Source of the DNA: an uncultured Gammaproteobacteria bacterium
Lineage (GTDB): Bacteria; Pseudomonadota; Gammaproteobacteria; JAURND01
Reading direction: 5' to 3'
Assembly: GCA_963714975.1 (NCBI GenBank)
Contig: CAVQQD010000003.1
Location: 448,001 to 512,000 of the forward strand
Length of the DNA: 64,000 bases
The position numbers and the translations under genes are program-made. Shown one piece after another: positions 18,604-41,388 of the stretch (positions within the stretch are counted from its first letter, which is position 1; every line of letters begins with the position of its first letter). The notes under the pieces were generated by a model. It saw only the letters and a program-made list of their open reading frames with translations, ran no database searches and was not told the DNA's origin.

Positions 18604-19734
18604 ATGAAAATAGCCCCCTTTAAAATTGAAGAATATTTCACCCAATATGAATTTTCAGTGCAGTATATGATGGGATCTTCTGATCCGGAATCTTTTACTT
18701 TGTCAGAAATAGTTGCCATGGCGGATTCGGAAAGTTTATCTTTATGGAATCAGTTGTATTTGGGATATACCGAATACTATGGTCTGCCGTTGTTGAGAGC
18801 TGAAATCAGCCAATTATATTCGAGCTTGGATCAAAATCATATTCTGGTTTGTTCTGGCGCAGAAGAAGCCATTTACATCACCATGCAGGTTTTGCTAAAA
18901 CCAGGAGATCAGGTTATCGTAGTGACTCCTTGCTATAATTCGCTTAAGGAAATTCCTAAAGCCGTTGGCGCGCAAGTCACCGAGTTACCATTGAATTATC
19001 AAAATGATCACTGGTCTTTAGATTTGGAAAAATTTGCCTCTTTGGTCACCAAAAGAACTAAATTGATTATCGTTAATTTCCCCCATAATCCAACGGGGTT
19101 TTTACCCAACCATGAAACTTTTCAAGCGATTGTTGAAATAGCGAAACGGCATAATTCTTATTTATTCAGTGATGAAGTTTTCCGATTGTCCGAGCAAGAT
19201 CCGCAAGATCGATTACCCAATGCAGTGGATTGTTATGAAAAAGCGCTGAGTATAGGGGTGATGTCTAAATCATTTGGATTAGCGGGATTGCGGATTGGTT
19301 GGATTGCTTCTCATCTTAAAAGTTTGCTTCATGATTTTGTATCCTATAAAAATTACACTTCAATGTGTAATAGCGCTCCTAGTGAAATTTTATCATTGAT
19401 TGCCCTACGAAATAAGGAACGGATTTTAGAAAGAATTCAAAACATTACCAAACCTAATTTGGATTTACTGGATAATTATTTTCAGCGCAATGCAGATGTT
19501 TATCAATGGGAGCGCCCACGAGCGGGTTTTGTTGGGTTTCCCAAGTTAAAATTGCAAATAAACATAGAGACTTTTTCCAAAAGATTCATTGAAGAAGAAA
19601 ATGTGGTGATTTTACCTGATACTTTATTTGATTATTCAGATAATCGATTTAGAGTAGGCTATGGCAGAGGTTATTTTCTGGAAACATTAAATAGACTAGA
19701 GGGATTCACCAAGAGATTGCATATGGTTCTTTGA
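18604..19734 (+). CDS. PLP-dependent aminotransferase class I/II
   Basis: NFPHNPTG, SDEVF, SKSFGLAGLRIGW; stop codon is supplied by the IS end. Confidence 0.93.
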   Translation: MKIAPFKIEEYFTQYEFSVQYMMGSSDPESFTLSEIVAMADSESLSLWNQLYLGYTEYYGLPLLRAEISQLYSSLDQNHILVCSGAEEAIYITMQVLLKPGDQVIVVTPCYNSLKEIPKAVGAQVTELPLNYQNDHWSLDLEKFASLVTKRTKLIIVNFPHNPTGFLPNHETFQAIVEIAKRHNSYLFSDEVFRLSEQDPQDRLPNAVDCYEKALSIGVMSKSFGLAGLRIGWIASHLKSLLHDFVSYKNYTSMCNSAPSEILSLIALRNKERILERIQNITKPNLDLLDNYFQRNADVYQWERPRAGFVGFPKLKLQINIETFSKRFIEEENVVILPDTLFDYSDNRFRVGYGRGYFLETLNRLEGFTKRLHMVL

Positions 19735-19769
19735 CATCCTTGTATCTTAATTCTAATCACTCAATGTGG

Positions 19770-19950
19770 TTAAATATCCAAGGGCACTTGGATAGGGGTA
19801 AATATGCCGGTGACATCCTAAGGCATTAAGCCTGTAGAGGAGATTTTAGCAATTTACCCCGTACTTTATTCATACAGACCGGACGGTATCTTAGGACTTG
19901 AGGTAAATATCAATGATCCTGTATTCACAAGGTTGGTCCGAATAAAGCTA
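19770..19950 (+). ncRNA. Predicted bridge RNA of IS110 element 2 (ends approximate)
   Basis: 5' hairpin TATCCAAG/CTTGGATA; target loop closed by GGGGTAAAT/ATTTACCCC; donor loop closed by CTTTATTC/GAATAAAG; four guide segments match. Confidence 0.88.
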
Positions 19951-19982
19951 TCCAAGCTATTCGCAACATGTAGGATACTACT

Positions 19983-20948
19983 ATGAAGAAAGCATTTCTA
20001 GGCATTGATATCAGTAAAAATACATTTGATGTAGCTGTGCTAATGGAAGATAAGATAAAAACTCAAAAATTCAACAATAACGAGCAAGGCTTTAATAAAT
20101 TACTTGTATGGCTAAACCAGAAGGAAATCGTGTTGTCTCAAGCTTGTATGGAAGCAACCAGTATTTACGGGCAGGCATTAGCCGAATTTCTTTATGCTCA
20201 AGAAATCCCTATAAGCGTTGTTAATCCTGCGAGAATTAAAGGATTTTCTCAAAGTGAATTAGCCCGCTCTAAAAATGATATTCTTGATGCAAAATTAATT
20301 GCAAGATTTTGTAAGTTGATAGGCCCAGAATTATGGCAACCAACTCCTGAACCGATTAAAATATTACAGCAATGGGTTAGGAGATTGGATGATTTAATCG
20401 CTATGCACAGACAAGAAGAAAACCGATTAGAAGTTTCTGATCATTGTTTAAAGGAGCACATACAAGAGAACATTAGCCACTTAGAAAACAATATTAAGGA
20501 AGTTAAAAATGTCATTAAAAATCACATAAATAGCGATCCTGACATGAAGAAAAAAAGCAAGCTATTGCAATCTATTCCTGGTATTGGAGAAGCAACTACA
20601 GCGCAGATATTGGCTTTTATTGGGAATGTGAGTAAATTCAATAATGCGAAAGAATTGGCGGCATTCGTTGGTCTTAATCCCAAGCAACGACAATCAGGAA
20701 CCTCTATCAATGGTAGAGCTAGACTCTCTAAAACAGGTGATTCGGCTCTAAGAAAAGCATTTTATATGCCCGCTGTTGTCGCCATGAGACATAACCCAAT
20801 ACTCAGAAATTTTTCTATGCGACTAGAAAAAACCGGCAAACACAAAATGGTTATTATTGGCGCAGTAATGAGAAAGCTTGTTCATATGATTTACGGGATA
20901 CTAAAATCTGAAACCGTGTTTGATCAAAATATATTAAAATTAGCTTGA
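19983..20948 (+). CDS. IS110 family DEDD transposase/recombinase
   Basis: [29 protein letters not shown]. Confidence 0.97.
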
Positions 20949-20997
20949 CAGATGAGACGGTATCTCCTCGCCTAAAGGGCGAGGATTCCTACTGCGG

Positions 20998-22206
20998 TTA
21001 CGCAACTTGTGCGCAACTCGCTTCGGTGGGTTCTTGCTTCCTCGAGCGACCTGACTGCGTCTTCTCTCCACAAGCTAGCAAGCGGTGCCCCCGCTCTAAA
21101 ATATTGATCGCGCCAACCACATCGGCATGGTGGCTATAGCCACAACGCACGCACGCAAACTCAGCTTGCGTTTTGCGATTGTCTGCACAAACGTGCTGAC
21201 AGGCAGGACAGGTTCGACTGGTATTTTTCGGATCCACCGCCAGAAAAATGCCACCGTTCCACTCAAGCTTATAAGCTAACTGGCGTCGAAATTCGCCCCA
21301 ACCCTGATCCAGTATGGCGCGATTTAAACCTGCCTTTTGTCTGACCTGGCGACCGTGCTGCTCACAGTTGCCTTTGGCAGATTTCGACATTGCAGCTATC
21401 TGCAAATCCTCAACACAGACGAGCGCGTGGTTTTTGCTAATCGCGGTGCTGGTTTTGTGCAGAAAATCTTGTCTGACATTGGCAATTGTGTTGTGAGTCT
21501 TTTGAACCCGCCTTTGGGCTTTGATCCAATTACGACTAAATTTTTTCTTACGCTTCAAGCGACGTTGATAATGCGCAAGGCGTGCTTGATGTTTTTTGAA
21601 GCTATTCATGGGTTCGACATAGGTCCCATCACTCATCGTAGCAAAACGTGCAATACCCATATCAATACCCACTGGGGTAGTAGCTGTTGGCAAGGGTTGA
21701 CTCTCTTCACGCTCGGTCTGCACTGATACAAACCACAAGCCATTGCATTGCTTGACGATGACATTTTTAATTTTCCCTACTACATCGCGACTGTTGCGAT
21801 AGCGTATCCATCCCAATTTTGGCAGAAAAATACAGTTATTATCTTGATCCAGCTTAAACCCTTGTGGAAAACGAAAACTAGCTGATGAGTGAGCTTTTTT
21901 CTTGAATTTGGGGAAAGCAGCACGGTAGGCGAAGAAGTTTTTAAATGCGCGATCAAGGTCTTTAGTGACTTGTTGCAAGGTTTGGGAGGGTGATTGTTGC
22001 AGGTAGGGCATTTCTTTTTTCCATACTAACAACCAGTGATTCATACCAAAGCTATGGGTAAACGGTTTGTTTTCGGCGTAGAGCTCTTGTTGACGCGCTA
22101 ATGCTAAATTCCAAACCTTACGTGCATTACCCGCAAACTGACTCATCGCGCGTTTTTGCGCACCATTCGGCTCAATACGGAATTTAAATGCTTGCTGGAT
22201 TTTCAT
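20998..22206 (-). CDS. tnpB: RNA-guided endonuclease TnpB
   Basis: RuvC GIDMG / VEDL / [10 protein letters not shown] and zinc finger CPAC..CVRC are intact. Confidence 0.96.
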
Positions 22207-22260
22207 GCGACTATTATATTCTGGTCTATGCCAAACTCAATACAGTAAAAAGCGAATCCA

Positions 22261-22461
22261 TCACTTATGTGGAGCTCCACATAAGATCACCAGCAAATCG
22301 TAGTGATCCTGTAAATGTTCGAGCGTTGCTGTGGCTGAACCTTCTACATCGACGTGGCAATGTTTGTCTTTGAACAAACCTTGCGCGGCTTTTGCGGCCA
22401 TTCGGTTGTCTTCGGTTACTAAAATACGTGCGATAGGGGTGCTTTGTGATTGTTGTGTCAT
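22261..22461 (-). pseudogene. Truncated response-regulator receiver domain
   Basis: RILVTEDNRMAAK..YDLLVI resembles the receiver of 41687-43285; breaks at a 22-bp palindrome. Confidence 0.7.
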
Positions 22462-39789: not shown

Positions 39790-39831
39790 TTGACGTCCTC
39801 CCCGCCTAAAGGGCGAGGATTCCTACTGCGG

Positions 39832-41040
39832 TTACGCAACCTGTGCGCAACTCGCTTCGGTGGGTTCTTGCTTCCTCGAGCGACCTGACTGCGTCTTCTC
39901 TCCACAAGCTAGCAAGCGGTGCCCCCGCTCTAAAATATTGATCGCGCCAACCACATCGGCATGGTGGCTATAGCCACAACGCACGCACGCAAACTCAGCT
40001 TGCGTTTTGCGATTGTCTGCACAAACGTGCTGACAGGCAGGACAGGTTCGACTGGTATTTTTCGGATCCACCGCCAGAAAAATGCCACCGTTCCACTCAA
40101 GCTTATAAGCTAACTGGCGTCGAAATTCGCCCCAACCCTGATCCAGTATGGCGCGATTTAAACCTGCCTTTTGTCTGACCTGGCGACCGTGCTGCTCACA
40201 ATTGCCTTGGGCAGATTTCGACATGGCAGCTATCTGCAAATCCTCAACACAGACGAGCGCGTGGTTTTTGCTAATCGCGGTGCTGGTTTTGTGCAGAAAA
40301 TCTTGTCTGACCTGGGCAATCGTGTTGTGAGTCTTTTGAACCCGTCTTTGGGCTTTTATCCAATTACGACTAAATTTTTTCTTACGCTTCAGGCGACGTT
40401 GATAATGCGCAAGGCGTGCTTGATGTTTTTTGAAGCTATTCGCGGGTTCGACATAGGTCCCATCACTCATCGTAGCAAAACGTGCAATACCCATATCGAT
40501 ACCCACTGGGGTAGTAGCTGCTGGCAAGGATTGACTCTCTTCACGCTCGGTCTGCACTGATACAAACCACAAGCCATTGCATTGCTTAACGATGACGTTT
40601 TTAATTTCCCCTACTACAGCACGACTGTTGCGATAGCGTATCCATCCCAACTTTGGCAGAAAAATACGGTTATTATCTTGATCCAGCTTAAACCCTTGTG
40701 GAAAACGAAAACTATCTGATGAGTGAGCTTTTTTCTTGAATTTGGGGAAAGCAGCACGGTGGGCGAAGAAGTTTTTAAATGCGAGATCAAGGTCCTTGGT
40801 GACTTGTTGCAAGGTTTGGGAAGGCGATTGTTGCAGGTAGGGCATTTCTTTTTTCCATACTAACAACCAGTGATTCATACCAAAGCTATGGGTAAACGGT
40901 TTGTTTTCGGCATAGAGCTCTTGTTGACGCGCCAATGCTAAATTCCAAACCTTACGTGCATTACCCGCAAACTGACTCATCGCGCGTTTTTGCGCACCAT
41001 TCGGCTCAATACGGAATTTAAATGCTTTCTGGATTTTCAT
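39832..41040 (-). CDS. tnpB: RNA-guided endonuclease TnpB
   Basis: About 12 substitutions versus copy 1 (hand count); catalytic D-E-D intact. Confidence 0.96.
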
Positions 41041-41081
41041 GCGACTATTATATTCTGGTCTATGCCAAACTCAATACAGTA

Positions 41082-41143
41082 AAGAGCGAATCCAAAACGG
41101 GTAGACACTACAGTACATTGAGCAGCAACCAAAACCCAAATAA
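41082..41143 (+). pseudogene. tnpA: Internally deleted tnpA remnant
   Basis: SESKTGRH (Y1 transposase N-terminus-like) joined to QYIEQQPKPK* (C-terminus-like). Confidence 0.7.
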
Positions 41144-41196
41144 TCGAAGGAGTGCCTTACATCCACCATGAATGACGGGGTCTTACGGCACGATGG

Positions 41197-41388
41197 ATAA
41201 ACTGTTCAAAAGATTTTCCAAATTCTGGAGTATTTTGTGCTGGCTTGCGTTGCGCTAAATAATTAGTGACACCAATATCGAATAAATAGAATTTTTCAGT
41301 TTCTATCAGCCTTTTTTCTTGGACCCCAGAGGAAAGCAGATTTATCTGCAGGTAACGTTATATTAAGGAGTCGAGATTTAATGTCCAT
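41197..41388 (-). pseudogene. 5' fragment of a DUF4143 AAA ATPase gene with a large internal deletion
   Basis: MDIKSRLL..AFLWGPRK, then in another frame KFYLFDIGV..GKSFEQFI. Confidence 0.8.

Follow-up and report, generated by a model that had tools for sequence, protein, structure and literature searches.

Does an insertion sequence (IS) that lies within the end of another mobile element come to rest there by chance, or is the site specified by the inserted element itself? This question is raised by a locus on contig CAVQQD010000003.1 (positions 448,001–512,000, forward strand) from an uncultured Gammaproteobacteria bacterium (assembly GCA_963714975.1). The whole 64,000-nucleotide (nt) stretch of DNA that was analysed is termed the window. 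Window positions 19741–20965 hold a 1225-bp IS621-like element of the IS110 family (this length includes one copy of the CT core, 20964–20965), which interrupts the right end (RE) of a TnpB-only IS200/IS605 element. It is well supported, and we consider it likely, that the guides of this IS621-type element specify the IS605 RE and that its targeting is recurrent and guide-directed.

Positions 19731–19740 read TTGACATCCT and positions 20966–20984 read CCTCGCCTAAAGGGCGAGG. Deletion of 19741–20965 restores TTGACATC-CT-CCTCGCCTAAAGGGCGAGG, the RE of the TnpB-only element, with two bases different from the uninterrupted end at 39790–39818 (TTGACGTCCTCCCCGCCTAAAGGGCGAGG). The IS110 element is located 8 bp inside this RE. 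The CT core is present at both junctions (19739–19740 and 20964–20965) and the empty site holds one CT; the element shows no further target duplication and has no terminal inverted repeats. The right target, CCTC, consists of the first 4 nt of the RE hairpin.

The 242-nt region upstream of the recombinase gene displays two stem-loops with internal loops (fold z = −3.26) and is the predicted bridge RNA. In the target-binding loop (outer stem GGGGTAAAT/ATTTACCCC, 19795–19803/19852–19860) the left target guide (LTG), TGACATCCT, lies on the 5′ side at 19811–19819 and is identical to the left flank plus core. On the 3′ side, the right target guide (RTG), GAGGAG at 19837–19842, is the reverse complement of CT plus the right flank CCTC. 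In the donor-binding loop the left donor guide (LDG), GACGGTATCT at 19882–19891, equals the final 10 nt of the element (20956–20965), and the right donor guide (RDG), ACAAG at 19927–19931, is the reverse complement of CTTGT at 19739–19743, i.e. CT and the first 3 nt of the element. Among 20000 mononucleotide shuffles of the 242-nt region, matches of equal length occur 18 times for the LTG 9-mer, 660 times for the RTG 6-mer, 3 times for the LDG 10-mer and 4758 times for the RDG 5-mer. The LTG and LDG matches are far beyond chance. The short RTG and RDG matches appear convincing only by way of their position, which is conserved in relatives.

Relatives of the element are encoded at 50 loci in species genomes and 25 in metagenomes. 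Across 16 aligned non-coding regions the paired cells make up 82.8%, as against 65.3% in shuffled controls and 33%–47% with slid partners, where the structure has an advantage from being partly derived from the window sequence. Compensatory changes are seen in 18 of 23 pairs, and five helices across both loops are supported. Both element ends can be identified at 40 of the relative loci. At 30 of these the left flank of that same locus plus CT (at least 9 nt) recurs in the non-coding region, with 12 distinct 9-mers, and for 28 of the 30 a reverse complement of CT and the right flank is found no more than 60 nt downstream. The LTG offset in compact elements is about 55–78 nt, and the RTG lies about 25–30 nt further; in the window the two offsets are 70 and 96. 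The donor arrangement GAC(A/G)GTAT-CT...CACAAGG is common to the relatives.

The recombinase open reading frame (ORF; 19983–20948) gives Pfam matches to DEDD_Tnp_IS110 (PF01548, 3.7e-24) and Transposase_20 (PF02371, 9.5e-29); both the DEDD RuvC-like N-terminal domain and the C-terminal Tnp domain are present. A search of PDB sequences aligns it end to end with ISCro4 (9t56, E = 3.4e-73) and IS621 (8wt6, E = 1.9e-71). The segments GIDISK, CMEATS, DILDAK and QSGTS align with the corresponding ISCro4 motifs (GID, CMEATS, D..DA and SG.S are kept), which we take to be the site of the catalytic acidic residues and of the Tnp-domain serine.

The genome (2.56 Mb in three contigs, here C1 to C3) contains four full copies of the IS110 element (99%–100% identical), one copy truncated at 711 bp and one 32-bp left-end remnant. 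Five of the six left junctions are TTGAC(A/T)TC-CT, and three of the four right junctions are CT-CCTCGCC(C)TAAAGGGCGAGG followed by IS605/TnpB sequence. No unoccupied perfect target was found in the 2.56-Mb genome. Every empty RE deviates from the guides: four of family A (the TnpB-only type) beside TnpB sequence, two fragments, and three of family B, which carries tnpA as well (Table 1). The IS110 copies differ pairwise at 2–7 of 1225 positions and the host IS605 copies at 4–9 of about 290 and 65 of 1303. As the hosts are more diverged than the elements within them, the insertions should be younger than their hosts and are most simply explained as independent.

At C2:270039–270080, TTGACATC-CT precedes some 32 bp of the IS110 left end, beyond which the sequence is unrelated. 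This is the remnant of the sixth insertion at an IS605-type end, the IS605 part of which is gone.

The guides vary together with their targets. Position 75 of the element, within the LTG, is A in two copies that lie at A targets and T in the truncated copy (L005), which lies at a T target. It is also T in a copy outside the IS605 ends (L004), where the flank has T as well; here the match to the LTG is confined to the 6 nt adjoining the insertion (CTTC-CT). A second example comes from a 2.9-kb metagenome contig (L064). Its recombinase is 76% identical in amino acids (aa), and the element is inserted with TTGACGTC-CT on its left and CT-CCCCGCCCTGAAGAGGCGAGG (CT-CCCCGCC...) on its right; beyond it are a TnpB with 47%–49% identity to either TnpB family of this genome and then a Y1 TnpA. 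The RTG of L064 is GGGGAG instead of GAGGAG, in agreement with the CCCC at the L064 site. That a deeply diverged IS605 is occupied at the same position, with a compensating change in the guide, argues for the IS605 RE as the lineage's natural target.

The initial annotation of this locus had described an IS621-type bridge-RNA element whose insertion is specified by guides and is not random, with target guides expected to vary along with the flanks. The coordinates and strings on which it was based agree with the sequence base for base. The recombinase, the two-loop RNA, the CT core and the target and donor guides are all in place, the recurrence of the RE site among the other copies argues for specified insertion, and the expected covariation is found both for the A/T position of the LTG within the genome and for the RTG of the 76% relative. 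The further inferences of that annotation, that TnpB is disarmed, TnpA excision blocked and IS605 parasitised besides serving as a safe harbour, may hold by the mechanisms of IS608 and ISDra2.

Table 1. Features of the IS110 insertion and its IS605 target (window coordinates), and empty right ends elsewhere in the genome.
Feature	Position or copies	Strand	Sequence	Basis
Left target: terminal 8 nt of IS605 RE plus CT core	19731..19740	+	TTGACATC (TnpB strand GATGTCAA)	direct reading, copy comparison
IS621-like IS110-family element	19741..20965	+		direct reading and genome copy comparison
Left-end non-coding region, predicted bridge RNA, 242 nt	19741..19982	+		fold, structure conservation
Target-binding loop: stem, LTG, inner hairpin, RTG	19795..19860	+	stem GGGGTAAAT/ATTTACCCC	fold, guide identity, relatives
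Donor-binding loop: stem, LDG, inner hairpin, RDG	19877..19938	+	stem GACC/GGTC	fold, guide identity, relatives
IS110-family DEDD recombinase, 321 aa	ORF 19983..20948	+		Pfam and PDB matches
Right end of IS110 element	20945..20965	+		direct reading
Subterminal RE hairpin of IS605 element	20966..20984	-	CCTCGCC-TAAAG-GGCGAGG	direct reading, fold
Occupied TnpB-only IS200/IS605 copy, family A, body	20966..22260	-		domains, copy comparison
TnpB ORF, intact, 402 aa	20998..22206	-		Pfam: OrfB_IS605, Cas12f1-like TNB domain, helix-turn-helix
Uninterrupted family-A IS605 copy, ~1412 bp	39790..41201	-		copy comparison
Empty RE, family A	2 copies		TTGACTTC-CT-CCCC	
Empty RE, family A	1 copy		TTGACGTC-CT-CCCC	
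Empty RE, family A	1 copy		TTGACGTC-CT-CCTC	
Empty RE, fragment			core altered to TG	
Empty RE, fragment			rearranged	
Empty RE, family B (tnpA plus tnpB)	3 copies		TTGACATC-CT-CTCC	
Empty RE, another type	2 copies		TTGACAT-CCTCGCC, different spacing	

A course of events that would produce these junctions can be proposed. The target loop appears to be programmed for TTGAC(A/T)TC-CT-CCTC, the sequence at which the terminal 8 nt (...GATGTCAA) of the IS605 RE adjoin its subterminal hairpin, and the recombinase would insert the circularised element at the CT core. With guides programmed for this junction, the IS would land recurrently 8 bp inside IS605 REs and fill every perfectly matching copy in this genome. 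For the lineage, the site would have the form TTGACNTC-CT to the left and CT-CC(T/C)C-hairpin, beside tnpB, to the right.

During transposition of the IS608 type, the RE hairpin is recognised by TnpA, which cuts after TCAA, a few bases 3′ of the hairpin. The scaffold of the TnpB omegaRNA extends to the RE boundary, and its guide is taken from the flank (ISDra2). With 1.2 kb between the RE hairpin and the TCAA cleavage site, TnpA would be unable to excise the occupied copy; as the insertion would replace the guide from the flank and the final 8 nt of the scaffold, that copy would be unable to direct TnpB to its own empty site. From these known mechanisms we infer that TnpA excision may be blocked and the omegaRNA scaffold uncoupled from its guide. 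The benefit to the IS110 element is most likely a multicopy, host-neutral landing site, which would be held constant by the functional constraints of IS605 and would recur in distantly related IS605 elements of other hosts.

Several observations weigh against the guide-directed targeting of IS605 ends or limit its consequences. The full copy L004 (C2:1202801) lies outside any IS605, at ...CTTC-CT-CCTC..., a 10-nt partial match without a hairpin; thus the element is not restricted to IS605 ends. In the copy L003 the LTG has T where the target has A, and the LTG of L064 (TGACTTCCT) has one mismatch to its target, at the position that is variable in this genome. The empty RE at C3:268399 has a single LTG-position mismatch of the same kind as its only deviation from the guides and stays unoccupied. 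In view of these mismatched insertions and this empty end, occupancy is no simple function of guide match. The association with IS605 ends is seen in two lineages only, this genome and the 2.9-kb metagenome contig. TnpB queries over the 75 relative loci gave matches in only two, adjacent in L064 and about 1.8 kb away in L055. The relatives with 56% identity or less (Microcoleus, Chamaesiphon, Tychonema, some Enterobacterales, and metagenome contigs) insert at hairpin 3′ arm-CT-AC, e.g. AACCCGCCC-CT-AC, preceded at a distance of about 40 nt by the inverted partner GGGGCGGGTT. Their sites indicate targeting of the IS621 kind, at hairpins that resemble repetitive extragenic palindromes (REPs). 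Rfam gives no family for positions 19600–22400 at E-values up to 1, and both the bridge RNA and the omegaRNA are predicted from the sequence. As to the inactivating effect, all three occupied IS605 copies are without a left end (LE) and two have a broken or deleted tnpB, so that this effect is inseparable from the ordinary decay of old copies. The pattern fits inactivation followed by decay and old copies that were both decayed and hit equally well. Three of the four empty family-A copies are full length.

Guide-directed targeting would not by itself imply an attack on IS605. It could be supposed, further, that the IS110 lineage is a dedicated hyperparasite, specialised to inactivate IS605/TnpB by a cut between the RE hairpin and the cleavage site, which would immobilise the host element and unplug the omegaRNA guide. 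In such an arms race the RE would escape by a change from CCTC to CCCC, and the RTG would follow from GAGGAG to GGGGAG. We regard this as possible and somewhat doubtful. It would explain why CCCC, a mismatch to the RTG GAGGAG, is found in three of the four empty family-A REs beside TnpB sequence, why the GGGGAG guide of L064 lies within a CCCC end, why all perfect targets are occupied, and why the decayed copies are the occupied ones. On the TnpB strand, the CCCC variant would cost the hairpin no more than one pair changed to a G-T wobble (G-U in RNA), and it mismatches the RTG; it may be speculated, from two lineages, that it is a plausible escape variant. However, the covariation comprises two data points, and tracking of a locally abundant RE variant would give an equal pattern at no cost to IS605. 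The functional effects are themselves predicted from known mechanisms, and precise excision of the IS110 element would restore the RE.

The occupied sites might also be non-independent, if a composite IS605::IS110 unit had been duplicated or had transposed as a whole. The terminal TCAA cleavage site does persist beyond the IS110 element, and three junctions are identical. This explanation is nevertheless improbable: the host IS605 copies are 5–10 times more diverged than the IS110 copies inside them and their IS605 parts differ in truncations and deletions, a T-variant end and a remnant provide further junctions, and the independent relative L064 is at the same position in an IS605 with a TnpB of only 47%–49% identity. 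Lastly, the structure of the target hairpin could drive site choice, by protein recognition of a REP-like stem, with the guide matches being incidental. Insertion beside hairpins in the relatives too is in line with this, but 9-mer and 10-mer matches as good as those observed arise in only 18 and 3 of the 20000 shuffles, and 30 of 40 relatives carry their own flank (12 different 9-mers) at the homologous loop position. A 10-nt match without a hairpin is present at the off-site copy L004, and the hairpin is on opposite sides of the core in this lineage and in the relatives. Site choice by the hairpin is thus highly improbable, and guides that specify the IS605 RE remain the preferred explanation.

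The REP-like targets of the distant relatives, together with the presence of an adjoining TnpB only in L064, make the IS605-directed lineage look like a retargeting from REP-like hairpins to the subterminal hairpin of a transposon itself. In the scan of species genomes, full-length matches to the recombinase are at most 54% identical and partial ones at most 56%; their right flanks are diverse and none has an adjacent TnpB. A tblastn search of the plasmid collection gave 58 records, all below 60% identity. No close homologues were detected in eight other genomes of the same family/order at the thresholds used. At class level, a scan of 401 genomes for the left-junction pattern matched one, which is this genome. 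In viral contigs, the right-junction pattern gave two matches, both due to chance and with no hairpin or IS110, and a protein scan gave no relative.

More than 20 relatives (L011–L033, L067, L073, L087; cyanobacterial and metagenomic) are found at one repeated motif, GGGGCGGGTT(~40 nt)AACCCGCCC-CT-AC. This motif is a REP-like inverted repeat, or one of the type of miniature inverted-repeat transposable elements (MITEs), of filamentous cyanobacteria. Several of the relatives at the motif have much longer left ends than the compact elements, with an LTG offset of about 150–310 nt.

The boundaries of the IS605 elements were inferred by comparison of copies. They show subterminal hairpins on both sides, no inverted repeats, and fixed tetranucleotides at the boundaries. 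In family A (~1412 bp, TnpB only) the RE hairpin is followed by ...AGGATGTCAA. The LE hairpin (GACCCCGTCATTCATGGCGGGG-type) abuts TTAT-like flanks and the RE terminus, ...GATGTCAA, ends in TCAA. In the fold of an intact end the RE hairpin is the only stable 3′ stem (z = −1.36, not significant). The TnpB of the window aligns over its full length with ISDra2 TnpB (1.6e-43), and the acidic residues and CxxC pairs are kept. The uninterrupted copy at 39790–41201 has the RE TTGACGTC-CT-CCCC..., with two mismatches to the guides. The occupied copy lacks about 107 bp at its left end; the sequence beyond (22261–22420) is unrelated and has no LE hairpin.

Family B is 1768 bp long and is present in three copies that are 99% identical (C2:659100–660867, C2:507708–509470 and C1:106237–108004), with tnpA divergent from tnpB and a TnpB that is 43%–44% identical to that of family A. 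The three Y1 TnpA genes (PF01797) all belong to family B; one is free of stop codons and two have an in-frame TAG. The LE hairpin and the RE terminus GGATGTCAA are common to both families, and family A is probably mobilised in trans by the TnpA of family B. Each family-B copy lies about 2.4–4.6 kb from a family-A element or fragment.

Three further observations concern the IS605 ends. The TGA at 19732–19734 is the stop codon of a class I/II aminotransferase ORF (18604–19734) and falls within the terminal TTGA of the IS605 RE; this suggests that IS605 inserted at or within the very end of the gene and now supplies its stop codon. At C1:120411–120585 there is a 175-bp MITE-like deletion derivative of family A, in which an RE part is fused to an LE-proximal part. 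Its RE reads TTGACTTC-CT-TGT-CCTAAAGGGCGAGG, which lacks 6 nt of the hairpin arm and carries a TGT identical to the opening 3 nt of the IS110 left end; this may be the scar of an imprecise IS110 loss, or chance. Two related unoccupied hairpin ends, at C2:1166521 and C2:1181458, read TTGACAT-CCTCGCCCTGAAG(A/G)GCGAGG-ATTTCTACTGC. Compared with family A their spacing is reduced by 3 nt, which suggests that they represent a third family, IS605-like or MITE.

The IS110 element ends on its right with the left donor and core, GACGGTAT-CT (20956–20965). TTGACA is found at 20945–20950, and the joint between right and left ends in an excised circle would give TTGACA-17 nt-TATCTT, a putative junction promoter. 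A TTGACA in the flank was also considered as a promoter of the integrated copy and was dropped, since its spacing to TATCTT is 6 nt. A promoter and terminator scan was uninformative (5 promoter-like sites against 4.9 expected). Among the sequencing runs examined, no RNA run contained the locus, and nine DNA runs contained small shares of it (0.18 or less); four of the nine gave eight short low-depth contigs, with none across a junction and no joints. These contigs bear neither way on excision, circles or expression of the IS110 element.

If the insertion stops TnpA excision and TnpB homing, the locus would represent a compact conflict of two RNA-guided mobile elements and might act as a brake on the spread of IS605. 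Otherwise this would be another IS110 element with a multicopy safe harbour conserved by constraint, as are the REPs and the Tn21 inverted repeats. Should the hyperparasite explanation be true, the locus would provide the first natural example of an RNA-guided mobile element that is programmed to target another. The locus also indicates a reprogramming of natural bridge RNAs, away from REP-like hairpins and onto the functional end of a second RNA-guided transposon. Matched and mismatched targets occur here as a natural set, in which one left-target position is A, T or G and the right target is CCTC or CCCC; this set suits the testing of mismatch tolerance.

The element resembles IS621 and ISCro4 in its full-length recombinase match, a 5′ non-coding RNA with target and donor loops, the CT core and a donor of the type ...GTAT-CT-TGTAT.... 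The LTG likewise corresponds to the left target plus core, and the RTG is complementary to the core plus right target. As reported for IS621, a −35 hexamer in the right end could join a −10 hexamer in the left end upon circularisation. Unlike IS621, whose wild-type target is reported as ATCAGGCCTAC, the natural target here is an IS200/IS605 right end and not a chromosomal REP. The right target is CCTC or CCCC instead of the AC... of IS621 and of the cyanobacterial and enterobacterial relatives, and the target hairpin is found on the 3′ side of the core, not on the 5′ side as in IS621. The target element resembles IS608 and ISDra2 in its TnpB match, its subterminal LE and RE hairpins, an RE that ends in TCAA and an LE at a TTAT-like tetranucleotide. 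It differs in that family A is TnpB-only (~1412 bp), for which a sister family in the genome probably supplies the Y1 TnpA, and in that its omegaRNA is a predicted one.

The initial annotation knew of no characterised example of such an insertion. In the main texts of the openly accessible papers searched, no IS110 element was found described as targeting an IS200/IS605 right end, and to this extent the statement stands. It does not stand for transposon ends and REP hairpins in general, at which IS110 elements are established to be aimed. IS4321 and IS5075 are reported as IS110/IS1111-family elements that are likewise nested in the functional end of another transposon, the Tn21-family inverted repeats. 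Their host is a DDE transposon of the Tn3 family with double-stranded inverted repeats, whereas here it is a single-strand HUH/TnpB element; in the IS1111 group, moreover, the guide RNA (seekRNA) is placed differently and no second RNA-guided system is struck. The REP-targeting IS621, ISPpu9 and ISPa11 are reported to take a fixed position beside a short GC-rich multicopy hairpin too, and REPs are described as mobilised by REP-associated tyrosine transposases (RAYTs), which are related to IS200/IS605 TnpA. The subterminal hairpin of IS605 is the nearest mobile analogue of a REP. Unlike the hairpins of REP-targeting IS110 elements, it is part of an active-type, TnpB-encoding transposon, and the cut falls between hairpin and cleavage site. 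Thus the bridge-RNA mechanism and the targeting of transposon ends and REPs are known, and the IS605 right end is a new class of natural target.

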